A DNA stretch of 64,000 nucleotides from NCBI GenBank assembly GCA_024679065.1, contig JAGIQG010000016.1:2108001-2172000 (forward strand), given 5' to 3'. Numbering within the stretch: the first letter of the stretch is position 1; the number at the start of each line of letters is the position of its first letter. The position numbers and the translations under genes are program-made. Shown here piece after piece: positions 2,001 to 61,696 of the stretch. Origin of the DNA: Sphyrna mokarran (taxonomy: Eukaryota). The notes beneath the pieces are model-generated. The model saw only the letters and a list, made by a program, of their open reading frames with translations, was not told the origin of the DNA and did no database searches.

Positions 2001-2013
2001 TAGATGGGTCTGA

Positions 2014-2240
2014 TGTACAGATGCCGGCGTTGGATTGGGGTGGTAAGAACTCAGTAAGAATTTAGCAACATCAATTTATAATCCAACCGATTTATTTGAT
2101 AGTAAAAAAGCAAGCTTTCGACTCTGTGTCTTCCTCAGGCAAATGCAGTGTTCTGGTCTGCATTTGCCTGAGGAAGACACAGAGTCGAAAGCTCGCTTTT
2201 TTACTATCAAATAAATCGGTTGGATTATAAATTGGTGTTG
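2014..2240. mobile_element. Palindromic Penelope-like insertion with hammerhead-type motifs
   Basis: 86-bp inverted arms (2063-2148 / 2158-2243), 9-nt loop, 14-bp direct repeat CTAGATGGGTCTGA at 2000-2013 and 2241-2254; CTGAGGA-A-GACacagaGTC-GAAA-GCTC core at 2168-2194. Confidence 0.85.
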
Positions 2241-2493
2241 CTAGATGGGTCTGAACAGAGTGCAGTAGAATTGAAGCATCTCTTATACGGGATTGGAACC
2301 CAGCCTGCTTGAGATAAGGTCCAACATTCCAATAGCCTTTGAGTAAAAGTTTGTGTTGTATTGCCCACCTGGGTTTGGCAATCTGGCTGAGTTTTCTGCA
2401 GTTCCACCTGACAATCTGTTCATTCAGACCAGACAGGGAACATCACCCACTCCCTGAGCCCCATACCGCATAGCAAAGATCTCAACAACTCAC

Positions 2494-14359: not shown

Positions 14360-15790
14360 CATATTTAAACAGATTTCTGCAAGTCCTTTAAGTATCAGGT
14401 GTTCACCCTTCCTGACTGTCCTCATCACTACTCCCAATGTTTACTTTGATCTTTGTCATTTTAAATAGACATTCACTTTTCAGTTCCAATTTCCGAAGTT
14501 CAAATTCTCTCTCTTTTTCCCTTTCCTCTCTCTCTTTCACTTTTTATTCTGCCACAGTTATCCTTTTCCTATTGACTGTAGCTCAAGTGGTTTTATTTCT
14601 TTTTCTTATTGCAATTCCAACTGTTTCAGTTCTCTTGCTCTCTGTTCTATTGCAATTGTCTCTCTCTCCCTCTTTTGCTTCTCTGTTTTTCTTTTGCTTC
14701 TAATTCAATCTTTTTCTTTCATAACTGAATTCAAGCCATTTCTAATGATTCTGACTATGTTTCTGGCAATGTTGAGTACTGAGCTATTGCTGCAATTATT
14801 TCTCTCTTCCATCGCCATTCAGGCAATGTCAACTGCAGCTTATTTGTCGATTCCAAAATTTTTGCTTCAACCACCTTTTGTAAACCACACAGAGTGATTT
14901 CCACATCCAGGAAACTTTTGGCCACTCAACGAGCTATTATTCTGCAAGGTATATATAAACTAACCAAATGCAAACCTGAAAAGAAAACACAAATACTCAC
15001 CACTTTTTGTTTTTGAGTCCAATAATCTTAATCCTAACAAGGAATTATACATGTTAATCCCACAAAAGCTCCCAATTTGTTAGGGACCTGATCAGAAACT
15101 CAAAGATACGTTATGAAGTTAGCCTAGATTCCAACCCTTTTATGATTCTGGCATTAGTGTGAGGATCAGGTGTTTCACTCCAGGAATGATTCAAGGGACC
15201 CACGAGGAAGTTTTTACTCAAACAAACTTTATTAAACAAAACAGTTAAAATATAATGAAAATAGTTAAGATAACTTTTACCAATTGAAATATTTCAACAT
15301 GAGAAAGTACAATTCTTTACTGCTAACTATCTCTATAGTTCCAATTTAAGCAATATCCACACAAATATAAATCACTGATCAGAATCAGTTAGCACAAACA
15401 TTAGATTTCTAAGCTTTTAACACCTTTGGACAGAGGTGCAGAATGACACCTGTCTCCTGACGCCTATCTAGCAACCTTCATGGAAAGATCTATCTTCAGA
15501 GCTTCAGAGAAATAGACCTATTTTCTGGCAAGCCCTGGACTCCAATCATCAGAGAGAGAAAGAGAGAGATATAGAGAGCTTTTTCTTTCTGAAGGTCCCA
15601 AGTAGCAACTGTGTTTATTCCTCCTTTAGAGCCTAACCTTGCCAGTCACATGATTTTTCCTGTCAATTAACCTAATCAAAACTCACTCTGAAAAACACCA
15701 CGAGAATTACTAAAATAATAACACTGCATTAGCCCAGATTTAAACAAACACTCCAGCAATTAGGATCAATTATCTTCTGCAGTAGCAACA
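14360..15790 (-). mobile_element. LTR element remnant: probable LTR 15790-15078, PBS-like site and decayed gag-like leader
   Basis: Minus strand TGTTGC...CTAACA followed by AATTGGGAGCT (PBS-like), then purine-rich coiled-coil-like sequence. Confidence 0.5.
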
Positions 15791-16234: not shown

Positions 16235-16370
16235 ATGATGTTGAGATGCCAGCGTTGGGCTGAGGTAAAACACAAAAAAATCCCACAACACCAGTTTAAA
16301 ATCCAAACAGGTTTATTTGTAGCAAACGCCACAAGCTTTCGGGACAGCCTGTCCCTTCGTCAGGTGGCTG
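16235..16370 (-). mobile_element. Single Penelope-like terminal fragment with hammerhead-like core
   Basis: Minus strand CCTGACGAAGGGACAGGCTGTCCCGAAAGCTTGTG...AATAAACCTGTT...GGCATCTCAACATCA, homologous to the palindrome arms. Confidence 0.7.
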
Positions 16371-17751: not shown

Positions 17752-17868
17752 TTATATATTCCCATAAATAGCATCCTGAGAAAAGTCACGGTTTGCATAA
17801 AAATCATCTTCTGGATCAAAACTGAGGCTGTGTTTAGATTCCATTTCCAGAACCTTCCCTTCTTTCAT
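17752..17868 (-). CDS. Siglec-like receptor A, last coding exon: MKEGKVLEMESKHSLSFDPEDDFYANRDFSQDAIYGNI*
   Basis: TTTCTATTACAG acceptor; phase 0; TAA at 17754-17752; same length and frame as paralogous exon 60737-60621. Confidence 0.88.
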   Translation of the reverse strand: MKEGKVLEMESKHSLSFDPEDDFYANRDFSQDAIYGNI

Positions 17869-22460: not shown

Positions 22461-22920
22461 AGGAGCAAAAGATTTGTATTTGTTTAGCACCTTTCACAAC
22501 CTCAGTCCTAAAGCACTATACAATCCAGGAGTGCTACACTATCAGACCAGACACTAAACCAAGGCCCAGTCTGCGCTCTCTGGTAGATGTGAAGATCTGC
22601 TGGACACCTAGGGGAAGAACAAGGGCAATTCTCCAGAGTGACCTAGAACCAGTCTATATCCTTCAGTATCCTTCAGAATACCAAGCTAGCCAAAGACAGA
22701 TAATCTGTTGGCTGTTTGTGAAAGCTTGTGTGCTCAGTCAGGCTGCCCCATTTTTAACATGACAACACTTTCAAACTATTTAGTTCACTCTAAATTGTGT
22801 ATGGGGGCGGTGGTCACGAATTGTGCAAGGTGCTGTAGAATTGCAAGATTTCTTTAGGGAGAGAGCTGTGAGGTAAGAGATGACTAAGATAACAATCAGA
22901 AATTAGATCCTCGCACTTAC

Positions 22921-23017
22921 TTTTTTACATACTTGAAGATGATGAATCCAATCAGTTCAACACACAAAGTGATTCCAGCTCCAAGCAATCCTACTTTCCA
23001 CTGATTGGAGGCTGCAA
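22921..23017 (-). CDS. Siglec-like receptor A, transmembrane exon (97 nt): VAASNQWKVGLLGAGITLCVELIGFIIFKYVK
   Basis: TTACAG acceptor, GTAAGT donor, phases 1/2; hydrophobic helix with basic stop-transfer; same size as 62621-62525. Confidence 0.9.
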
Positions 23018-23099
23018 CTGTAACAGTCAAAGAACAACTGTGGTTCAGTGTTTTAAAATGGGCTGGAGGGGTCGGAGGTTGTCACTGAATAAGCATTAT

Positions 23100-24469: not shown

Positions 24470-25995
24470 AAATAATGTCTTATAAATTTGATTGAGTTTT
24501 TTGAAGGGGTAACCAAAAAGATAGATGAGACCAGCGCAGTTTATGTTGTCTGCATAAGGCCTTTGACAAGATACTGCAGAACAGGTTGTTGCATTAAGTT
24601 AAATCTCACAGGATCCACGGTGACATAGCTAAATGGATCCAAAATTGGCTTGATGACAGAATAAGTAAGAAGTCTCACAATACCAGATTAAAGTTCAACA
24701 AGTTTATTTGATAGTAAATCCACAAGCTTTTGGAAAACTGTTCTTTCTTCAGGTGAGTGCAAAGTCCTGATCAGAAATTCATCTGACAAAAGAACAGCAT
24801 TCAGAAAGCTTGTGGGTTTACTATCAAATAAACTTGTTGGATTTTAACCTGGTGTTGTGAGACTTCTTACTGTATTTACCCCAGTCCAACACTGGAATCT
24901 CCACATTGATGACAGAAGACAGAGGGGTGGTTTTAGTGAGTTGTTTATTCAAACTAGTGGACAGTGAAGAAGGTTATTTAGGATTACAACAGGATCTTGA
25001 TCAATTGGGCCCTTAGGCTGATGAATGGCAGATGGAGTTTAATTTAGAAAATTGTGAGGTGATTCATTTTAATAGATTAAACTAGGGCAGGACTTACTCA
25101 GTTAATGGTAGGGCACTGGGGAGAATTATAGAACCGAGATCTAGGAGTACATGTTCAAAGCTCCTTGAAGATAGAGTCATAGGTGGACAGAGTGGTGAAG
25201 AAGGCATTCGGTTTCATTGGTCAGAACATTGAATACAGGAGTTGAAGTTGCACAAGATATTGATAAGGCCATACTTGGAATATTGTGTACAGCTCTGGTC
25301 ACCCTATTGTAGAAAGGATATTATTAAATCGCAAGAGTACAGAAAAGATTTACTAGGATGCTACCAGGACTTGAGTTATAAGAAGAGGTTGGATAGGCTG
25401 GGACTTTTTTTCTGGAGCGTAGAAGGCTGAAGGGTGATCTTAAAGAGGTCTATAAAATAACAAGGGGCACAGATCAGCTAGACAGTCAATATCTTTTCCC
25501 AAAGCTATGGGAATCTAAAACTAGACGCTATAGGTTTAAGGTGAGAGGGGAGAGATACAAAAGGGTTCAGAGGGACAATTTTTTCACTCAGAGGGTAGTA
25601 AGTGTCTGGAACAAACTGTCAGAGATAGTAATAGAGGTGATACAATTTTGTCTTTTAAAAAGCATTTAGACAATTACATGTGCAAGATGAGTATAGAGAT
25701 TCCCACCAGTCTCTACATTCAAAGGATTATCCTCCACCATTTCCATCAACTCTAGCATGATGCTACAACCCAACACATCTTCCCCTCACTGCCCCTGTCA
25801 GCATTCCACAGGGATCTCTATCTCTAGGACATCCTGGTCCACTCCTCCATCACATCCAACATTTCATCCCTGTCCATGGCACTCCCATGCAATCATAGAA
25901 CATAGGCAGTTGGAACTAGCTTAGTGGTAAAAAAAAAAGAGTGGCATGGACAAGTTGGGCTAAAGGGCCTGTTTCCATGATGTAAATCTCTACGA
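24470..25995 (+). mobile_element. Decayed CR1 LINE with nested insertions (palindrome at 24662-24905; Penelope-like ORF fragment ~25700-25895)
   Basis: RPYLEYCVQLWSP etc.; nested piece translates to PTSLYIQRIILHHF...HIFPSLPLSAFHRD, resembling Penelope-like ORFs. Confidence 0.8.
24662..24905. mobile_element. Older, diverged palindromic Penelope-like insertion
   Basis: Imperfect inverted arms AGTAAGAAGTCTCACAA...TTGTGAGACTTCTTACT; 12-bp direct repeat TTGATGACAGAA at 24650-24661 and 24906-24917. Confidence 0.8.
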
Positions 25996-26014
25996 CCCTT
26001 TGACTATGACTCAC

Positions 26015-26308
26015 CTGGCACAGTTAGTATGAGGTTCCTCTCCGCTGAAACAGATGGATATTTCACTCTACAGGTGAGATTGTGTCCATGGTGTTTGAGT
26101 GATGGGATCAGGGTCAGAACAGAAGTATAGGTCAGAGTGTTGCCATGCTGAGTTACAGTGTTTGAGACTGATCCAGGTATGTCATTGAGAGTGTACCAGG
26201 TTAAGACAGGTGCTGTTCCATTGCACGTTGTGTTGAAGGTGCAGCTTATGTTCACACGTTTTCCTGCAATAATTTCAGCAGGAAATATTGTGGGTTTATC
26301 TATGAAAT
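26015..26308 (-). CDS. Siglec-like receptor A, C2-set Ig exon (294 nt): NFIDKPTIFPAEIIAGKRVNISCTFNTTCNGTAPVLTW...HHGHNLTCRVKYP...LILTVP
   Basis: Siglec domain-2 pattern C-x5-C-x4-P-x3-W and HGxNLTC; phases 1/1; GTGAGT donor; alternative in-frame acceptor 9 nt inside. Confidence 0.93.
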
Positions 26309-26719
26309 CTAACACACACAGAATGGATTTTTTAGATAAATATATCATGAAACATCAGTTCAAATAGAAATCACAGTCCCACAAGAGAAAGCATTGTTAC
26401 AAGGATGAAATCAGAACTGAGAGATTACAATGATCATTAAAGAATTTTCTATTTTCTGAGTTAACACTGTGTCAGTAACTCAGTTAAATACTCTTTCACA
26501 CAGTGAGGCTTGAGGCATCAAAATGGAGGAGCAACTCGCAGAGAACTCACTTAGAAATCTATCCCAAATTTAAATTAATTCCTATGCCCAGCTGGACAGA
26601 AACGCTTTGAAACAATCTCTGAAGCAGCGTCTAAAACAAATGATTAGTTATTTGTCTGCAATCCATGGGAGCTTGCTGTTCACAAATTGCCCTCTTTGTT
26701 TCCTATGTTACAATAGTGA

Positions 26720-27314: not shown

Positions 27315-29388
27315 TGCTTATTCAAGGAGCAGCTGCTGCGAGTCCTTGATAAGTATGTCCCTGTCAGGCAGGGAGGAAATGGACGAGTAAGAGAGCCTTG
27401 GTGTACGAAAAGAGTTGATTTGCTGGTTAAGAAGAAAAAGGATGCTTATGTCAGGATGAGGCTTGAAGGCTCAGGTAGTGCAATGGATAGCTATAGATTA
27501 GCTAGGAAGGAGGTAAAAAGTGAATTGAGGAGAGCTAAGAGGGGACACGAGAAGATGTTGGCTGATAGGATTAAGGAGAATCCTAAAGCTTTCTTTCGTT
27601 ATGTTAAGAATAGAAGATTGGTTCGGGCAAGATTAGGGCCAGTCATAGACAGCAGTGGGAAGTTGTGCGTGGAGCCTGAAGAGATTGGTGAGGCACTGAA
27701 TAAATATTTCTCTTCGGTATTCACACAGAGTGCTGGAAATGTAGCTGTGGAGAGCACTGAGGTACAGGGTTGCAAATTGGGGAGTATTGTAGTAGATAGG
27801 GAGGATGTGTTAGAAATTCTCGAGTGTTTGAAGTTGGATAAGTCCCCTGGGCCGGACGGGATTTACCCTAGGATTCTCTGGGAGGCAAGAGAGGAGATTG
27901 CAGAGCCTCTGGCTCTGATCTTCAGGTCCTCGTTGGTTACGGGTGTGGTTCGGAGGACTGGAGGATAGCGAATGTGGTCCCATTGTTTAAGAAGGGGAAG
28001 AGAGACCTTCCAGGGAATTATAGGCCAGTGAGTCTTACTTCTGTTGTGGGCAAAGTATTGGAGAGAATTATTAGGGATAGGATTTATAGTTATTTAGAGA
28101 GAAATGAATTGATTGGGATAGTCAGCATGGTTTCGTGAAGGGTAGGTCATGCCTTACTAACCTCATTGAGTTTTTTGAGAAAGTGACCAGAGAGGTGGAT
28201 GGGGGTAAGGCGGTTGATTTAGTATATATGGACTTTAGTAAGGCGTTTGATAAGGTGGCCCATGGAAGACTTCTACAGAAAATGCAGATGTGTGGAATAG
28301 AGGGTGATTTCGCTAATTGGATTAGGAATTGGCTGGCAGATAGAAGACAGAGGGTGGTGGTTGATGGGAGATATTCATCGTGGAGTTCGGTGACGAGTGG
28401 TGTGCCTCAGGGTCTGTTTTGGGGCCCCTGCTGTTTGTAATTTTTATAAATGATCTGGATGAGGGTATTGAGGATGGATCAGTAAATTTGCAGATGACAC
28501 TAAAGTCGGTGGAGTGGTAGATAGTGAAGAGGGGTGTTATAGTTTACAGAGTGCCTTGGACAAGTTGCAGAGCTGGGCCGAGAGGTGGCAAATGGAGTTT
28601 AATGTGGAAAAGTGTGAGGTAATGCACTTTGGCAGGAACAATAAATGTGTAGAGTATGGGCTAATGGTAGGGCTCTTAATAGTGTTGAGGAACAGAAGGA
28701 TCTTGGTGTATGTGTCAATAGATCCCTGAAAGTAGGCAGTCAAGTTGATAAAGTTGTTAAGAAGGCATATGGAGTCTTAGCTTTTATTGGTAGGGGGATT
28801 GAATTTAGGAGCCGCAGCATCATGTTGCAACTGTACAAAACTCTAGTGCGGCCGCACTTGGAGTATTGTGTGCAGTTCTGGTCGCCACATTATAAGAAAG
28901 ATGTGGAGGCATTGGCGAGGGTACAGAGGAGGTTTACCAGGATGTTGCCTGGTATGGAGGGCAGGTCCTATGAAGAGAGGTTGAAGTATTTGAGGTTGTT
29001 TTCGTTAGAAAGGAGGCGGCTAAGAGGGGATCTTATTGAAGCATATAAGATGATTAGAGGTTTAGATAGGTGGACAGTGATAGCCTTTTTCCTAGGATGG
29101 AGAAAGCTAGCACGAGGGGACACAGCTTTAAATTAAGGGGTATGAGTTATAGGACGGATATCAGAGGTAGGTTCTTTACTCAAAGAGTGATTAGGGAGTG
29201 GAATGCCCTGCCTGCAGCTGTTGTAGATGCGCCAAGTTTGGTGGCGTTAAGAGGTTAGTTGATAAGTATATGGATGAGAAGGGAATGGTTTAGTTAGGAG
29301 GGGCATTGCTTTTTATTTTGGTCGGCACAACATCGAAGGCCGAAGGGCCTGTTCTGTGCTGTATTGTTCTATGTTCTATGTTCTATGT
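27315..29388 (+). mobile_element. 5'-truncated CR1 LINE, frameshifted RT
   Basis: KSPGPDGIYPR, YMDFSKAFDKV, SGVPQG, KFADDTK, RPHLEYCVQFWSP; (TTCTATG)3 tail. Confidence 0.96.
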
Positions 29389-29514: not shown

Positions 29515-29880
29515 TAGAAACGTGAAGCCGAGATACAGGGTAGTAGCTGTAACTATTCCTTCTGTCAAATTCTATTCTGAAATAATAAGGCCCAGCATCT
29601 TCTCGTGTGATGTTGTTTATAATGAGGGAACAGTCGCCATCTTTCAGTTCTCCAGACAGCCGGGTCCGATGGCGGAACTGTGGCAATATGCGATTGTGAT
29701 CCTTGGAGTGAAAGGCTATAGATGATCTTCTCCATTTCTCGTTATTAAACCAGATTGCATCTCGCGATTGGTTTACCAAATCTGATGGATAACTGTAATG
29801 ACATGGAATCTGTACACATAAACCTTCCTGTGCTGTCACCTTTTGTGGAGTGTCGACTTTCCATTTCTGTGACAGTCCAG
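29515..29880 (-). CDS. Siglec-like receptor A, V-set Ig exon (366 nt) with predicted sialic-acid-binding Arg
   Basis: QEGLCVQIPC, GDCSLII and DAGPYYFRIE match the Siglec V-set signature (extra Cys, B-E intrasheet disulfide, F-strand Arg); TTTCTCTCTCCAG acceptor, GTAAGT donor, phases 1/1. Confidence 0.95.
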
Positions 29881-30510: not shown

Positions 30511-33464
30511 GCTTTCTCAGGCGATGACTTTGCTGACTGTTCTCCATTGTATTTTCAGTTGGGGAATATAATTGTATTTAGTATTTAAGTAAATTACGTT
30601 TTCGAGACCCCACGTTAACCTGACCCTACTGCAACAGGCACTGTCAAACACACAAGAAAGCGCCTGTTGCCGGACCTCTATATATGTCAGAGGTGTCGCT
30701 ATATTGGCTTCACAGTTTCACAGGTGGTATTACTTTGTTTTGTTAAGTGTGAACTGAAACCCATGTGTTAGGCTGAAGATTCCACCTATTCCCCTGCAGT
30801 ATTTATGCATTGATGCAGCAATGATAAGGGCTCACTGGCAAGGAATTTATTTCACGGAACCATAAAATAAGACAGCACAGCAAAAGACCATTCGGTCCAT
30901 CGTGCTTTTGCAGTTCCTTGAAGGAGGAAATTCAATAGCACCTCTACACAGCGACAGGAAAAGAGCATCACTGGGAAAAAAGCAAGGCGGGGGGAGGTGA
31001 GAGAGTTTAATAAATCGCACAGATCTACCAAAGGGCCAGCATAGGCATAATGGGCCGAATGGTCTATTATTGTATTGGATTATTCTATGGTTCCATGAGT
31101 TTTATCTGTATTGCAGTTAAGTTCTAATACAGAAGAAGACAGAGGCACAGTGGTAATGAGCTAGTGATTCAGAGTCCAGGCTAATATTCTGGACGTTTGG
31201 GTTAAACTGCTATCCATGATAGCTGGTAGAAACTGAATTCAATCTGGAATTGAAAGCTAATCTCTGCAATTGTGATCGAGAAATAACGATTGATTGACAT
31301 TAAAAACATTGGGTTCAATAATGTCCCTTTTAGTGAAGAAAAACTGCCATCTTTACCCAGTCAAGTCTACATGTGACTCCAGATCCACAGCAATGTGCTG
31401 ATGCTTAACTGCCCTTCTGAAATGACTGAGGGAGACACTTAATTCGAGGGACACTGAGGATTGTGCAACAAATGTTGGTGCAGCCAGTGACACCCACAAG
31501 CCATGAAAAATATGAGAGATAAGCTGATAGTTTTGTTATCAAACTGACGGTCTTGTTGTCTTTTTGATGTTTGCTTGGCTGGCTGCTATGATGACAGGAA
31601 GTCATTCTGTCTATTCTAAGCTCTGCTGCCTTGCAATCATGTGATTTCTCAGTAAAATTCTTATTTCAGAGCATCTCCAATTCTGAACTGTTCTCCATCC
31701 CCAAGGTTTAGGAAGAGAATTGCAGAGCTTAGAGTTGAGGCAACTGAAGGCACGGCTCCTAGTGGTAGAATGATGGGAACTGGAGAAACACAGGAGGCTT
31801 GGTTAGTGGCCACAGAGGGCTGAAGGGCCCATGGGAAGAAATAGAGAGAGGGAAGGTTATAGGGGCTAGAAGAGATTACAGAGATACAGAGGGGTGTAAA
31901 GGCTGAATGGTTATAATGGTAAGGAGGGCTATAGGGAATGGAAGAGGTTAAAGACAGAAGAAGGGTTAACATAGAAACATAGAAACTAGAAACAGGAGGA
32001 GACCATTCGGTCCTTCAAGCCCGCTCTGCCATTCATTTTGATCATGGCTGATCGTCAAATTCAATATTCTGATCCCCTTTCCTCCCAGATCCCTAGATCC
32101 CTTTAGCCCCAAGAGCTAAATCTATTTTCTCCCTGAAATGAGACAATGTTTTGGCTTCAATTACTATCGCTGGGAGTAAATTCCACACATTTGCCACTCT
32201 CTGGGTGAAGAAATTTCTCCTCATCTCAGTCCCAAAAGGTTTACCCCTTATCCTCAGACAATGACTCCCTAGTTCTGGACACCCATCATTGGAATCTAGC
32301 TTGTCTAACTCTTAGAATTTTGTAAGTTTTTATGAGATCCCCTCTCACTCTTCTCTCATGCAGTGAAGATATCCTAACTGATTTAGTCACTCCTCATATG
32401 ACAGATTTGCCATCCCATGAATCAACCTGGTAAGCCTTTGCTATACTCCCTCTACAGCAAGAACATCCTTCTTCAGATAAGGACAACAAAACTACACATA
32501 CTATTCCTGGTGTGGCTTCACAATGCCCCATGCAATTGCAGCAGAACATCCTTATCCCTGTATCCAAATTCTCTCGCTATGAAGGCCGATACCATTTGCT
32601 TTCTTTACTGCCTGCTATATCTGCACACTTATTTTCAGCGACTGATGCATGAAGACACCAAAATCTCGTTGAGTATCCATCTCTGTCAACTTACACTGAT
32701 TCAAGTAATAATCTGTCTTCCTATTAATGCTGCCAAAATGGATAACCTCACATTTATCCACATTATATGCATCTGCCATGCAGATGCCTACACATTTAGC
32801 CTGTCCAAATCACGGTGAAACATCTTTGCATCCTCCTCACAGCTCACCCTCCCACCCAACTTTGTATCATCTGCAAACTTTGAGATAGTATATTCAGTTT
32901 CTTCTTCCAAATCATTAATATATAATTGAACAGTTGGGGTCCTAGCACAGATCCCTGCAGAACCCCACTAGTCACTGACTGCCAATCAGAAAAAGATCCA
33001 TCTTTGAAGATGTGACTAAACACATGAATTACTAAACTTCACTAAAGTGTGAAGTTCATTTTGGCAGGTCAAATATAAATGACTTGGAAGAGGGAGTAAG
33101 TGGAGTGATCAGCAAGTTTGCAGACGATACAAAGATGGCTGGACTTGCGGATAGTGAGGAGCATTGTCAGGCGATGCAGCAGGACATAGATAGGCTGGTA
33201 GCTTTGGCAGATAGATGGCAGATGGAATTCAATCCTGATAAATGCAAGGTGATGCATTTTGGGAGAAAGAATGTAGCGGGGAGGTATATGATAAAGGGTA
33301 AACCTATTATGGTAAGTATGTCCCTGTCAGGCAAGGAGGAAATGGTTGAGTAAGGGAACCATGGTGTACTAAAAAAGTTAATTCACTGGTTAAAAGGAAA
33401 AAGGAGGCTTATGTCAGGATGAGGCTTGAAGGCTCAGTTAGTGCACTGGATAGCTATAGATTAG

Positions 33465-33707
33465 AACTCAGTAAGAATCTAGCAACACCAATTTTAAATC
33501 CAACCGATTTATTTGATAGTAAATTTGCGAGCTTTCGACACTGTCTTCGTCAGGCAAATGCAGCGTTCTGGTCTGAATTTGCCTGACGAAGACAGTGTCG
33601 AAAGCTCGCAAATTTACTATCAAATAAATCGGTTGGATTTAAAATTGGTGTTGCTAGATTCTCACTGAGTTCTTACTACCCCAGTCCAACACCGGCATCT
33701 CTACATC
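33465..33707. mobile_element. Young palindromic Penelope-like insertion carrying hammerhead motifs on both strands
   Basis: 101-bp arms (33463-33563 / 33573-33673), 2 mismatches, 9-nt loop; 15-bp direct repeat ATAGCTATAGATTAG at 33450-33464 and 33708-33722. Confidence 0.92.
33576..33614 (+). ncRNA. Minimal type I hammerhead ribozyme motif (mirror copy on minus strand ~33559-33523)
   Basis: AAUUUGC-CUGACGA-A-GACaguGUC-GAAA-GCU-C-GCAAAUU: 7-bp stem I, conserved core, 3-bp stem II, self-complementary AGCU stem III, predicted cleavage after C33607. Confidence 0.75.
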
Positions 33708-36700
33708 ATAGCTATAGATTAGCGAGGAGGAAGCTAAAGAGTGAGTTGAGAAGAGCTAAAAGAGGACACGAGAAGACTTTGGCTGATAGGATCAAGGAGA
33801 ATCCTAAAGCTTTCTTTAGATATGTTAAGAATAGAAGATTGGTCAGGGCAAGATTAGGGCCAGTCATAGACAGCAGTGGGAAGTTGTGCGTGGAGCCTGA
33901 AGAGATTGGAGAGGCACTGAACAAATATTTCTCTTCAGTATTCACGCAGGGAGACGTAAATGTAGTTGTGGAGAACACTGGGATACTGGGTTGTAAACTG
34001 GAAAGTATTGAAGTAGACAAGGAGGAGGTGCTAGATATTCTTGAGGGTTTGAAGTTAGATAAGTCCCCTGGGCTGGATGGATTTACCCTAGGATTCTCTG
34101 GGAGGTGAGAGAGGTGATTGCAGAGCCTCTGGCTCTGATCTTCAGGTCATCATTGGTTACAGGTATAGTGCCGGAAGACTGGAGGAGAGCGAATGTGATC
34201 CCATTGTTCAAGAAGGGGAATAGAGACTTTCCAGGGAATTATAGACTGGTGAGTCTTACTTCTGTTGTGGGCAAAGTATTGGAAAGAATTATTAGGAATA
34301 GGATTTATAGTTATTTAGAGAGTAACGAATTGATTGGGGATAGTCAGCATGGTTTTGTGAAGGGTAGGTCGTGCCTTACTAACCTATTGAGTTTTTTGAA
34401 AAAGTGACCAAAGAGGTGGATGGGGGTAAGGCGGTTGATGTGGTATATATGGACTTTAGTAAGGCGTTCGATAAGATGGCCCATGGAAGGCTTCTGCAGA
34501 AAATGCAGATGTATGGGATAGAGGGTGATTTAGCTAATTGGATTAGGAATTGGCTAGCAGATAGAAGACAGAGGGTGGTGGTTGATGGGAGATATTCATC
34601 GTGGAGTTCGGTTACTAGTGGTGTACCTCAGGGATCTGTTTTGTGGCCCCTGCTGTTTGTAATTTTTATAAATGATCTGGATGAGGGTATTGAAGGATGG
34701 ATTAGTAAATTTGCAGATGACACCAAAGTCGGAGGAGTGGTAGATAGTGAAGAGGGGTGTTATAGTTTGCAGACAGACGTGGACAAGTTGCAGAGCTGGG
34801 CCGAGAGGTGGCAAATGGAGTTTAATGTGGAAAAGTGTGAGGTAATTCACTTTGGCAGGAATAACAAATGTGTAGAGTATAGGGCTAATGGTAGGACTCT
34901 TAATAGTGTTGATGAACAGAGGGATCTTGGTGTATATGTGCATAGATCCCTGAAAGTTGGCAATCAAGTCGATAAGGTTGTTAAGAAGGCATACGGAGTC
35001 TTAGTTTTATTGGTAGGGGGATTGAATTTCGGAGCCGCAACGTCATGTTGCAACTGTACAAAACTCTAGTGTGGCCGCACTTGGAGTATTGTGTACAGTT
35101 CTGGTCCCCGCATTATAAGAAAGATGTGGAGGCATTGGAGAGGGTACAGAGGAGGTTTACCAGGATGTTGTCTGTATGAGGGCAGGTCTTATGAAGAGAG
35201 GCTGAGGGTTTGAGGTTGTTTTCATTAGAAAGAAGGCAGCTAAGAGGAGACCTTATTGAAACATATAAGATGATTAGAGTTTAGATAGGGTGGACAGTGA
35301 TAGCCTTTTTCCTAGGATGGGAAAGCTAGCACGAGGGGACATAGCTTTAAATAAGGGGTGGTAGTTATAGGAGATGTCAGAGATAGGTTCTTTACCCAGA
35401 GGGTGTAAGGGTATGGAATGCCCTGCCTGCTGCAGTTGTAGATGCGCCAAGTTTGGTGGCTTTTAAGAGGTTAGTAGATAAGTTTATGGATGAAAAGGGA
35501 ATGGTTTAGGTTAGAGGGTCATTGCTTTTTCTTAATTGGTCGGCGCAACATCGAAGGCCGAAGGGCCTGTTCTGCGCTGTAATGTTCTATGTTCTATTAA
35601 GAGTATAGAAACGCAGAGGGACCTTGGGGTGCAGGTGCACAAGTCTCTGAAGCTGGCAGAGCAAGTGGAGAAGGTTGTGAAGAAAGTATATGGTATGCTA
35701 GCCTTTATAGGAAGGGATATAGAATACAAGAGCTGGCCTTTAATGTTGCAGTTGTATAAAACATTGGTTAGACCTCATTTGGAATACTGCGTCCAGTTCT
35801 GGTCAACTTACTACTGGAAGGACGTGGAGACTCTAGAGAAAGTGCAGAGGAGGTTTACCAGGATGCTGCCTGGTATGGAAGGTCTGAGTTACGAGGAGAG
35901 GTTAGGCAAATTGGGACTGTTTTCCTTAGAAAGACATAGACTCAGAGGAGATCTAATAGAGGTGTACAAGATTATGATGGGTATAGATAGAGTAAACAGG
36001 GTTAAGCTTTTTCCCAGGATGGACTCAAATAGCACGAGGGGTCACGGGGCTTAGGGTAAGGGCGGTAAGGTATAATTTGGATGCTAGAGGGAGTTTTTTC
36101 ACACAGAGGGTGGTGGGGGTATGGAATGCGCTGCCAAGTAAAGTGGTGGAGGCAAGCACTCTGGAGTTATTTAAGAAATACTTAGATGGGCACATGAACA
36201 GAATGGGAATGGAGGGGTATAGAGAACTGATTTAAAATAGGGATCATGAGCCTTGGGAGTCCCTGGGAAGTGTGTAAATGGATGATGATATTGACGTACT
36301 TGTTTTTATCCTACAGGTGCTTTGGTCCACCTTGTTGTCTAACAAGGGGCATTCACGCTTTGGGTCGTGAGAGGGCTGCTCTTGGATATTTTTCGAGAGT
36401 ATTGTAGTGCTTCACGTTGTTAGTGTATGCTTGACCTGGACCATTTGATGGGCAACACGACAGTTCAGTGACTATCGCTGTGCTGTGCAGATACATGGAT
36501 TTGGGCCTGTGTCTGTGGGAGTTTGTGCATTCTCCCCATGCTTGCGTGGGTTTTCTTTGGGTGCTCTGGTTTCCTCCCACATCCCAAAGATGTTCTGTTA
36601 GGCTTACTGGCAAAACAAATTCTGTCTAAATTGTCTCAAATTTGGTTTTTCATCTATAAACATAGACAGGGATCACGGGTAGAGGCGGGAACATTGAGGT

Positions 36701-38503: not shown

Positions 38504-38543
38504 CTTGGAGAACTGACAGGAGGAAGTAAGATTTCCCGATCAT
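38504..38543 (-). CDS. Siglec-like receptor A, signal-peptide exon: MIGKSYFLLSVLQ(A); exon extends as UTR to acceptor at 38586-38585
   Basis: GGCAATG start, CAAG/GTAAT phase-1 donor joining the V exon as ...LQAGLS-QKW; CTCCTTTCTCTTTCAG acceptor upstream implies a non-coding first exon. Six exons total 999 nt = 332 aa + stop. Confidence 0.8.
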
Positions 38544-46889: not shown

Positions 46890-47152
46890 CCAAGATGATG
46901 GCTTGAGACAATTCAGACTTCTTTAATCTGTACTTAACCCTCTCTCCACTCTCATGGTCTGTACCTATAAAGATTTGATTACCTGTTTAGATTCACATTC
47001 TAATCATTATCTTGTAAATTGAGCCTGTGTCTAAATATGCCCTTTTGGTGAACCCAACTCTCTACTCACCTGATAAAGGAGCAACGCTCTGAAAGTTTGT
47101 GCTCCCAAATAAACCTGTTGGACTTTAACCTGGTGTTGTGAGACTTCTTACT
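46890..47152 (+). mobile_element. Penelope-like terminal repeat, longer non-palindromic copy
   Basis: CACCTGATAAAGGAGCAACGCTCTGAAAG (decayed hammerhead core) then AATAAACCTGTTGGACTTTAACCTGGTGTTGTGAGACTTCTTACT as in the 24.7-kb arms. Confidence 0.75.
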
Positions 47153-55600: not shown

Positions 55601-57600
55601 CAAAAAATTCAGTCAAGTTTGTGAGACATGATTGTCATTCACAAAGCCATGCTAACTGTCCCTAATCAGACTTGCTTCTCTAAATGTCAGTAGATCCTGT
55701 CTCTCAAAATACCTTCCAACAACTTACCCACCACAGATGTGAGGCTCACTGGCCTGTAGTTCCCAGGTTTTTCCTGCAGCCCTTTTTAAACAAAAACATA
55801 ATACTTGTCACTCTGCAATCTTCAGGCACCTCACCTGGGACTATTGGTGATTCACATATCTCTGCCAGGGGACCTGCGATTTCCTCCCTAGCCTTCCATC
55901 ATGTCCTGCAATATACTTCATCAGGTCCCGAGGATTTACCTACCTTGATGCGCTTTAAAATTTCAGCATCTCTTTCTCTGTATTGTGTATGCTACACAAG
56001 ACATCACTGTTTACTTTCCCAAGATCCCTAATATTTATACTTTTCTCAACCAGTAAATACTGATGAGAAATATTAATTTAGGATCTCACCCATCTCTTGT
56101 GGATCTGCATATAGATGACCATGTTCATCCTTAAGAGGACCTAATTTCTCTCTTGTTACTCTTTTGCCCTCTATGTACTTCTAGAAGCTCTTTGGATTCT
56201 CCTTTGCCTTGTCTGCCAAAACAATCGGGGGTCCCCTTTTTGCTCTCTTGACTTCTCTCTGAACTCTACTGCTACACCCTCTATACTCTTCAAGACATTT
56301 ATTTGATTCCAGCTGCCTGTGCTGGTCATGTACCTCTTTTTCCTTCTTGATCAAGGCCTCAGTAACCCGAGTCATCTAGGGTTCCCTATTTCTGCCAGCC
56401 TTGCTCTTCATTCTCAGAGGAATGTGCTTACTCTGAACCCTGGTTAACACACTTCTGAAAGCCTCCCACTTACCAGAGATGCCTTTGCCTCCCCATAGAT
56501 TCCCCCAATTAATTTTTGAAAGTTCCTGCCTGATACCATCAAAGTTGGTCTTGTCCCAATGTAGAATTTTAACCTTTGGGCTGGATCAACCATTCTCCAT
56601 GGCTATCTTAAAACAAATACAATAATAGAAAGTGATCCCTCATTAACACTTTTGTCACCTGCCCTTCCTTATTTCCCCCAAGGAGGTCAAGTTTTGCCCC
56701 CTCTCAGGTCGGGCAATCCTCATACTGAATGAGAAATTCTTCCTGAATACAGTCAACAAATTTCTCTCTATCCAACTCTCTAATATTAGGGCTGTCCCAG
56801 TCAATGTTGGGAAAGTTAAAACCTCCTACTTTTACCACCCTATTTTTCATGGAGCTATCTGTAATCTCCTTATATATTTGCTCCTCAATTTCCCACTAAC
56901 TATTTGGGGTCCTATAGTACAACCTTATCAAAGTGATTTCAGTGTGTCACAATTTGATATGGCTCCTGCTCTGACCAAGACCGCAAGCAACTACAATAAA
57001 GGCAAAATACTGCAGCTGCTGGGATCTGACACTTCAACAGAAAATGCTGGGAAATCTCAGCATGTCTGACAGCATCTGTGGAGAGAAAACGGAGCTAACG
57101 TTTTGAATTTAGATCACTCTCCACAAATGCTGTCAGAGCTGCTGAGATTTTACAGCATTTTCTATTTTCGTGCCACAACAAACTACAAATGGTCGTGAAT
57201 GTAGCCCAATGCATCACGCAAACCAACCTCCGATTCATTGACTCTGTATATACTTCCTGCTGCCTCAACAAAGCAGCCAGCATAATCAAGGACACCATGC
57301 ACTCCAGACATTCTTTCTTCCATCTTCTCCCAGGAAAAAAAATACAAAAGTCTTTGATTGCATACCAACCAACTCAAGAACAGCTTCTTCTCTGCTGCCA
57401 TCAAACTTTTGAATGGCCCTGCCTTATATTAAGTTGATCTTTCTCTACACCATAGCTATGACTGTAACACTACATTCTGCACTCTCTTCTTTCTTTCTCC
57501 TCTATATACTCAGTGCACAGTATGTCTTGTCTGTGTAGCGCAAGAAAGAATACTTTTCACTGAATCCCAATACATGTGACAATAATAAATCAAATCAAAT
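52700..57600 (+). mobile_element. Decayed Rex1/Babar-like LINE interrupted by a minus-strand CR1 (54381-56940) and a small palindromic insert (56997-57180)
   Basis: ALKSIIMKCFKRL, LFIDYSSAFNTIIP, KFADDT; host resumes at ~56945; CR1 has SGVPQGSVLGPLLF. Confidence 0.85.
56997..57180. mobile_element. Palindromic insert of a second Penelope-like end family
   Basis: AGAAAATGCTG..AATCTCAGCA..TCTGACAGCATCTGTGGA inverted as TCCACAAATGCTGTCAGA..TGCTGAGATT..CAGCATTTTCT; AACTACAA repeated at 56989-56996 and 57181-57188; related single copy ~62940-63085. Confidence 0.65.
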
Positions 57601-60620: not shown

Positions 60621-60737
60621 TTACATATTCCCATAAATAGCATCCTGAGAAAAGTCACAGTTCGCATAAAGACTGTCTTCTGGGTCAGGACTGAAGCTAT
60701 GATTAGATTCCATTTGCAGAACTTTCTCCTCTTTCTT
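60621..60737 (-). CDS. Siglec-like receptor B (paralogue), last coding exon: KKEEKVLQMESNHSFSPDPEDSLYANCDFSQDAIYGNM*
   Basis: TTTCTATTACAG acceptor, 117 nt, colinear with 17868-17752; 3' UTR also homologous. Confidence 0.88.
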   Translation of the reverse strand, partial: KKEEKVLQMESNHSFSPDPEDSLYANCDFSQDAIYGNM

Positions 60738-60829
60738 CTGTAATAGAAACAGAAATGATCAGAGAGATAATCAGAGTGATCTGTGTTTAGTATAATTGAT
60801 CCAAATTGAAACTTCCAACCACACTAGAC

Positions 60830-61160
60830 ACCCATTAGTGACTCTGAACGGGGTCCCATTAGTGACTCTGAACGGGGTCCCATTAGTGACACTGAACGGG
60901 ATCCCATTAGTGACTCTGAACGGGGTCCCATTAGTGACTCTGAACGGGGTCCCATTAGTGACTCTGAACGGGGTCCCATTAGTGACTCTGAACGGGGTCC
61001 TATTAGTGACTCTGAACGGGATCCCATTAGTGACTCTGAACGGGATCCCATTAGTGACTCTGAACGGGATCCCATTAGTGACTCTGAACGGGATCCCATT
61101 AGTGACTCTGAACGGGATCCCATTAGTGATTCTGAACAGGGTTCGATTATTGATCCTGAC
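60830..61160. repeat. 24-bp minisatellite (CCCATTAGTGACTCTGAACGGGGT/AT), about 13 copies
   Basis: Near-perfect tandem units in last intron of receptor B. Confidence 0.95.
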
Positions 61161-61611
61161 AGAGCTTGCTTATTCATGCTGAATGTGGTTGGCGATGTCA
61201 ATTTTTGAGTTGCGTTTGGGTTTGCTAACCATCATACAGTCGTGACTGGAGCAACCACATCGATAACCAAGCAACTGTCCATGTGAAAGGCTCAGTAGCC
61301 TATGGTGTGTGACTCACCTTCTGATGACTCAGAGTCCCTGTTACCTCCCAGTTTTTAAAAGAAGGACGTTGATATTCATAGATTTGATGGTTCCTTTTGA
61401 TTTCCTGTTTCCCATTGCCTTTCTTCTGCAAATAGAAATGAATATAGAAGAGTAACAATCAACACCAGGTTTAAGTCCAACCGATTTATTTGATAATAAA
61501 CTCGCAAGCTTTTGAAGTTTGCCCCTTCGCCTGACTCAGTTTATAAAGTCACAACATCAGTAAAGGACAATGTTGGTCCTGGAAGTGAATTCCAATATTT
61601 CCATTACTTAC

Positions 61612-61696
61612 CAAGGACCTGTCGATCTGTTCATCTGGGGAGTAACTGCTGACACACTCTGCTTGGGCTGCATGTCCTGTTCTTGTGCTGCTCCCT
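61612..61696 (-). CDS. Siglec-like receptor B, cytoplasmic exon (85 nt): (K)GSSTRTGHAAQAECVSSYSPDEQIDRSL
   Basis: AAACAG acceptor, GTAAGT donor, phases 2/0. Confidence 0.86.

Follow-up and report, generated by a model that had tools for sequence, protein, structure and literature searches.

A palindromic insertion with paired hammerhead motifs in a Siglec-like intron of Sphyrna mokarran as the truncated, head-to-head end of a Penelope-like retroelement

The DNA considered here is a 64,000-nucleotide (nt) stretch of the Sphyrna mokarran genome (GCA_024679065.1, contig JAGIQG010000016.1, positions 2,108,001 to 2,172,000 of the forward strand), called the window throughout, and all unprefixed positions are counted from its first letter. 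At 33450-33722 the window carries a palindrome with a hammerhead ribozyme motif on each strand, lodged in a CR1-type long interspersed nuclear element (LINE) fragment. This fragment lies in the intron between the signal-peptide and V-set exons of a Siglec-like gene, which is encoded on the minus strand and has shark proteins as its relatives (Table 1). The original prediction, made from the letters alone, had placed the insert in this setting correctly, and excising the insert with one flanking repeat restores the CR1 reading frame. It had also interpreted the insert as a non-coding, non-autonomous hairpin element, retrozyme-like but inverted. Judged by its sequence, the hairpin is instead the pseudo-long terminal repeat (pLTR) of an autonomous Penelope-like element (PLE), present in two copies head to head, and the insertion is a young, dead stump of a known kind.

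The two 101-nt arms (33463-33563 and 33573-33673) are 98% complementary and lie 9 nt apart, as had been described, and the hairpin folds at -180.1 kcal/mol (z -28), a value matched by none of 200 shuffles. The expectation that this fold would mask both ribozyme cores held, all 7 core positions having a pairing probability of 1.0 in the minus-strand fold. The reported 15-nt direct repeat is exact (33450-33464 and 33708-33722), but the actual target-site duplication (TSD) is 13 bp (33451-33463 and 33709-33721), since the outermost two bases match the element ends by chance; similarly, the 9-nt gap between the arms is real, but the supposed loop is ordinary element sequence found in the left arm only. 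Absent from the earlier description was an unpaired 34-nt tail on the right arm, which has no counterpart in the left arm and is the diagnostic part of the insertion. In element coordinates, counted from the tail end, positions -151 to -140 are likewise found in the left arm only, and the two arms overlap by 3 nt at 33573-33575. The tailed arm is 93% like the 5' pLTR of L165, a copy bearing an open reading frame (ORF).

Table 1. Features of the insertion and its surroundings, in window positions
Feature	Position	Strand	Remarks
V-set exon, Siglec-like host gene	29515..29880	-	boundaries approximate
CR1-type LINE fragment	33300..35070	+	frame broken by the insert
Left target half-site, CTG	33446..33448	+	2 nt outside the duplication
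Left TSD	33451..33463	+	13 bp; 15 bp (33450-33464) if the two outer bases that match by chance are counted
Tail-less arm	33464..33575	-	Penelope pLTR, -151 to -35 counted from the tail end; contains the so-called 9-nt loop
Minimal type I hammerhead motif, left arm	33523..33559	-	C17 = 33529
Tailed arm	33573..33708	+	pLTR, about -139 to +1 counted from the tail end
Minimal type I hammerhead motif, right arm	33577..33613	+	C17 = 33607
AATAAA, poly(A)-signal-like hexamer of the pLTR	33623..33628	+	follows the hammerhead, as originally described
One-sided Penelope tail	33674..33708	+	34-35 nt; in long copies directly adjoins the ORF start codon
Right TSD	33709..33721	+	13 bp
Right target half-site, GAG in the window copy	33724..33726	+	CAG in 1,087 empty CR1 copies of the site
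Signal-peptide exon, Siglec-like host gene	38504..38543	-	

The Penelope family to which the hairpin belongs has at least 8,476 terminal-repeat matches in the 2.77-Gb genome, this being the number of exact matches to a 35-nt arm pattern; a 35-nt tail pattern gave 1,207, and a 207-amino-acid piece of reverse transcriptase (RT) gave 26,509 first-look candidates, 150 of which were scored, all being 98-100% identical. Longer copies run into an ORF encoding RT and a GIY-YIG endonuclease, the autonomous partner that the original prediction had thought worth seeking. Its attribution of the hairpin to Penelope and to retro-insertion was borne out. Open frames of up to 931 amino acids with RVT_1 and GIY-YIG domains were found, and intact ORFs exist; the 931-amino-acid frame of L081 scores 38.8 bits for RVT_1 (cut-off 29.6) and, at residues 830-870, 21.0 bits for GIY-YIG, just under the cut-off of 22.6. 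In the parent element the pLTR is located at the 3' end and also ahead of the ORF, the tail directly adjoining the start codon, and the combined tail-plus-ORF-start sequence has 188 exact matches, nine of them in one array. The nearest proteins come from sharks (83-88%) and then from turtles (44-47%). The parent protein contains a CX4CxxC linker (CHSNLCKTC) and, at its C terminus, a GIY-YIG motif (VVYLIRCKKGC..YIGET..EH..HF..H), and thus both the CX2-5CxxC linker and the CCHH signature. It resembles Neptune/Nematis-type PLEs in this linker and in a C-terminal GIY-YIG domain with two cysteines between the motifs (PMC8557442; here and below, statements from the literature refer to the accessible portions of the papers cited). 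This type call comes from linker and motif; the shark family differs in that no microsatellite targeting was seen, and no named Neptune or Nematis sequence was among the protein matches listed. The 5' pLTRs of the ORF-bearing copies L155-L184 range from about 30 to 450 nt, many being without a hammerhead at the 5' end, and two copies, L031 and L033, are 99.9% identical over 3 kb in opposite orientation on C1, representing either a segmental duplication or an assembly duplicate.

The architecture of the family was read from the first 90 loci of the exact-tail list (30 + 60, with 10 of the first 30 extended), with an actual long copy serving as the map. Inverted arms shorter than about 25 nt escape this procedure, 20 of the 90 loci had only 1.5 kb of upstream sequence, and a similarity search that ranked palindromes first was left out of all frequencies. 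A tail-less inverted arm was present in 53 of the 90 copies and absent from 32, the remaining 5 (duplicated, deleted or unresolved) being set aside. TSDs flanked 49 of the 53 inverted copies (control 1/53) and measured 12-14 bp in 42 of these 49. By alignment end, no inverted copy had two tails, the outer ends of the second arms lying at -10 to -53, and exactly one tail was likewise present in all 16 pairs that could be read among 29 held-out loci, most of these pairs having come from RT or arm searches.

The sites into which these copies inserted are palindromic, of the form CTG-NN^(12-13)^NN-CAG. When the two half-sites were folded together, C, T and G were present in 70%, 91% and 93%, respectively, and the pattern YTGR-N14..16-YCAR was matched at 7 or more of 8 positions in 47 of 79 sites, compared with 3.4% of random positions. 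The tail-list sample alone gave 31 of 49 sites at this score, and the motif signal peaked at spacers of 14-15. Among the held-out pairs, which include two other copies in the window, CTG-N16/17-CAG was matched at 5 or more of 6 positions in 13 of 16, again against 3.4%. The CR1 position struck in the window is represented by 1,087 exact empty sites in the genome, and the same site has been struck at least 79 times, at least 20 times in the window orientation and at least 59 times in the other. The junction was shared by 58 of the 59 opposite-orientation insertions although 0-8 free bases were allowed. We read 30 of these CR1-site insertions, 15 per orientation; their arm lengths differ, and the duplication TAGCTATAGATTA was found at 10/10 and 9/10 of the readable right junctions in the two orientations, 19/20 in all. 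Because the same CR1 site was used in both orientations with the same 13-bp duplication, the nicks are evidently base-exact and the insertion symmetric.

Other repeats have also been struck repeatedly at the same base by this family (L006, L023 and L192/L193; L012 and L016; L034 and L131). The window holds a second CR1 copy in which the same target position (27487-27501) is empty and the half-sites are weaker.

What the genomic copies record directly is the family and its ORF, a size series, the one-sided tail, the target motif, the fixed duplication and the use of one site in both orientations. The nearly fixed 12- to 13-base duplication within a mirror-symmetric site suggests that both strands are likely to have been cut and the RNA copied from both ends. 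We regard the window hairpin as a truncated head-to-head pLTR insertion of the autonomous element, probably made by the element's protein nicking the two strands of a palindromic CTG-N17-CAG site at points 13 nt from each other, with cDNA then primed from each 3' end. In this scheme a pair of proteins would recognise the two half-sites and nick 2 nt inside each, leaving 3' overhangs of 12-13 nt. One 3' end would prime where the tail ends (-2 to +8), and the second 32-45 nt upstream of that point, aided by 1-2 nt of pairing; synthesis of both cDNAs would end early, most commonly at the hammerhead's 5' edge (an RNA 5' end or an RT stop), and the two cDNA ends would be linked through microhomology or a few bases of filler before being filled in. 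The outer ends are in fact fixed on the element, at -2 to +8 and -32 to -45, and at the 51 of 83 sites that fit the motif they show microhomology averaging 1.4 and 1.6 nt, compared with about 0.33 by chance.

The two predicted priming positions match two internal start sites shown in vitro for a PLE of the anole, Poseidon of Anolis (PAc). The PAc protein, predicted to be dimeric, starts at two RNA sites bounding the tail; it cleaves both strands and extends them, and can do without the hammerhead (PMC11167929). PAc differs in that its ORF begins inside the hammerhead, and in the accessible portion of that paper two-strand priming is not linked to the inverted layout. With somewhat less assurance than for the window insertion itself, we suggest that the shark family as a whole is a sequence-specific, two-ended retrotransposon, in which paired GIY-YIG domains would cut CTG-NN^N12-13^NN-CAG in the manner of a bipartite restriction enzyme and two RT sites would begin cDNA on the two 3' overhangs, at two fixed positions of the RNA. 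If so, a single step would account for three Penelope features, namely the inverted pLTR, the tail on one side and the TSD.

The closest rival accepts the same Penelope insertion but derives the inverted arm from self-priming, the first cDNA or an antisense RNA folding back on itself, or the RT switching to an antisense template, as proposed in PMC3846280. The usual sharing of variants between sister arms fits this idea, as does the correlation of arm lengths in 48 simple pairs (rho 0.63), in 18 of which the two arms end within 10 nt of each other. Fold-back predicts, however, that the same arm is always the longer at the junction, so that one arm is nested in the other. Self-priming is disfavoured because such nesting was not seen: the tailed arm reached more than 10 nt further 5' in 15 pairs and the tail-less arm in 15 others, by up to 779 nt, and in the window copy each arm holds sequence that the other lacks. 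Three of 11 long pairs (L099, L134 and L135), read by eye, join haplotypes each of which is found in other copies. The position of both outer ends at fixed points of the element, with primer-like microhomology, also speaks against self-priming, and a switch to a separate antisense RNA, which is conceivable, leaves the stop at -32 to -45 unexplained. Taken together, the fixed duplication, the two orientations, the equal reach of the arms and the mixed haplotypes argue against fold-back and for priming on two strands, and we regard self-priming as unlikely.

A still less probable alternative, close to the original prediction, is that the palindrome is a non-autonomous RNA element in its own right, retrozyme-like and transposing as a 245-nt hairpin unit. 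Short palindromes are indeed the commonest class, both arms being at most 165 nt in 32 of the 48 simple pairs, and a 30-nt zone along the hammerhead's 5' edge (-155 to -126) takes in 41 of 96 arm 5' ends, compared with 6 of 96 at -300 to -166; a short pLTR-only RNA may template some of these short palindromes. The size series nevertheless continues without a break into the ORF. Arms of head-to-head insertions form a continuous series from about 30 bp to 2.8 kb, and the 5' ends of the 90 copies lie 42 to 2,875 nt upstream of the tail end. Because centre and outer end vary from copy to copy and the longer copies reach the ORF, the palindrome is evidently built anew at each insertion and is not the mobile unit. 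The locus also has a single tail and no tandem arrangement of units each with a hammerhead, and by the tandem definition it is not retrozyme-like; the reading as a non-autonomous hairpin element is not supported. Damage to the hammerhead core (G8A) affects 19 of 53 copies, as a rule in both arms. A DNA-transposon origin, as a miniature inverted-repeat transposable element (MITE), or a microRNA-type hairpin gene is barely conceivable: the arms are long and inverted and Rfam microRNA models match, but those scores fall far below the gathering thresholds, as for any long hairpin, and in place of the symmetric terminal inverted repeats, uniform length and RT-less ancestry of a MITE we found ends made asymmetric by the tail, variable 5' truncation and arms that are the end of an RT-encoding element.

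Several observations weigh against two-ended priming. Sister arms share 5 of 8 non-CpG doubletons (expectation 4.8%), as fold-back would also give, and the arms of a pair mostly come from the same source. Other insertion outcomes exist, because 32 of the 90 copies lack an inverted arm and their TSDs are rarer (17/32; control 4/32) and variable. The target motif is short, tolerant and derived from the same data, many CR1-site insertions have ATG for CTG, the window copy itself has GAG for CAG, and 13 of the 29 held-out loci gave no readable pair. Published work points partly elsewhere: the anole protein prefers ATT (PMC11167929), PLE endonuclease has been described as a nickase with moderate preferences and variable TSD length (PMC8557442), and PMC3846280 favours self-priming on an antisense template. 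Every step of the proposed mechanism is, moreover, read from genomic fossils of this one family.

At the arm junction of L106 lie six short repeated inverted pieces of one 54-nt segment, resembling repeated re-priming during joining. That a transcription start fixed at -151 causes the 5'-end pile-up could not be established, since 10 ORF-bearing copies have 5' pLTRs longer than 165 nt. Contigs of a sequencing run presumed to be RNA show a 5'-to-3' depth gradient that resembles the truncated copies in the genome.

The hammerhead motif has the anatomy originally described, on both strands. In the right arm it comprises stem I (33577-82/33608-13), CUGACGA (33583-89), an extra A, stem II (33591-99), GAAA (33600-03) and a palindromic AGCU, and the core pattern matched three times in the window against none expected. 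An Rfam search of the locus, which the original prediction had proposed as a check, matched no hammerhead model at an E value of 10. The classification as a minimal, dimer-type hammerhead was sound, the motif fitting the minimal type known from PLEs; those in PMC4209133 share the extra nucleotide before stem II, G10.1-C11.1 and the palindromic helix III, also occur as opposite-strand pairs 100-700 bp apart and show no substantive difference from the window motif. Monomers of this type were inactive in that study. For the window motif the minimum free energy fold of the monomer (-10.4 kcal/mol) differs from the hammerhead fold (-5.8 kcal/mol). Across 109 distinct motifs, which are related sequences from mixed families, stem II was paired at 96.6% (shuffles: mean 88.9%, maximum 91.7%) and stem I, a borderline case, at 86.2% (mean 83.1%, maximum 86.2%); double changes are present in this same related, mixed set.

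The hammerhead is likely to be a passenger, inherited with the pLTR and not needed for insertion. Only 26 of the 53 parsed tailed arms have an intact core, and among 24 arm pairs G8A was present in both arms in 10, in neither in 10 and discordant in 4. Because this change mostly affects both sister arms, it suggests that sources with a dead core still transposed; repair between the arms could also have homogenised them. Stem II was identical between sister arms in 8 of 24 pairs, a moderate signal (shuffle mean 2.2, maximum 9). Both arms end at or 3' of the cleavage site in 4 of 48 pairs against 1.0 expected, a post hoc count confounded by the correlation of arm lengths. This count and a tandem array at L185 are weak hints of cleaved templates. 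L185:1982-3435 (G000:C749, about 36,342,480-36,343,930) is a TSD-flanked, one-tailed inverted insertion in which each arm is a tandem array of the same 155-nt unit (7.6 copies in one, about 1.9 in the other). The unit begins 3-5 nt past the predicted hammerhead cut and extends 60 nt into the ORF, and the unit junction recurs at a second locus, L219:1362-1610. These arrays may record circular or repeatedly copied RNA from a cleaved transcript.

The inverted pLTR, the one-sided 34-nt tail, the TSD and the minimal hammerhead are all published features of PLEs (PMC8557442, PMC3846280, PMC8969392, PMC4209133). Insertions of endonuclease-positive (EN+) PLEs are known as head-to-head, 5'-truncated copies with a TSD, a hammerhead in the pLTR and a one-sided tail of 30-40 bp running into the ORF start (PMC3846280, PMC8557442, PMC8969392). 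The shark family differs in that its arms are often pLTR only, its TSD is nearly fixed at 12-13 bp, whereas published rotifer examples have 8-10 bp and PMC8557442 calls the length variable, and its target is a palindromic bipartite motif rather than the AT-rich or microsatellite DNA published for EN+ PLEs. Non-LTR retrozymes are likewise pLTR-derived and non-coding with a type I hammerhead, but they are tandem units each with a hammerhead, whereas the window copy is inverted and not a transposition unit (bioRxiv 10.64898/2026.07.22.740005). The formation of Penelope inverted ends and tails is called undefined in PMC8557442, and in the literature searched, which did not extend to subscription papers, supplements, Repbase or Dfam, we came across no mention of a palindromic target for Penelope elements or of priming from two ends.

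Taken alone, the locus is a dead Penelope stump of an ordinary sort, and its worth lies in the fossil record of insertion to which it leads. Twin priming in L1 is comparable in that both target strands prime cDNA and an inversion results; in L1 the site where the second primer pairs is internal and random, and no duplication results, whereas in the shark family the fixed start sites of the two primers, about 35 nt from each other, would cause the 3' end to be copied twice. The family offers a defined target, nick positions exact to the base, two start sites that are predicted and ORFs that are intact, which brings the choice between twin priming and self-priming within reach of a short biochemical experiment; one element already has an in vitro system (PMC11167929). 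For builders of RT-based insertion tools, a retroelement writing DNA from the two ends of a symmetric cut would be of interest, and thousands of such intronic palindromes are a potential source of double-stranded RNA.

Five more pLTR pieces of related Penelope families lie in the window (2011-2246, 24664-24906, 16235-16364, 47106-47152 and 61460-61515). Their hammerheads have different stem I and II sequences, and the first two are palindromic and one-tailed, in CTG/TTG-N16-CAG sites. The window also contains exon-like matches to shark Siglec/CD33-like proteins at 14629-14988, 17755-17865, 22920-23030, 25998-26327, 55670-55753 and 60624-61696, which suggest that the host gene belongs to a gene cluster.

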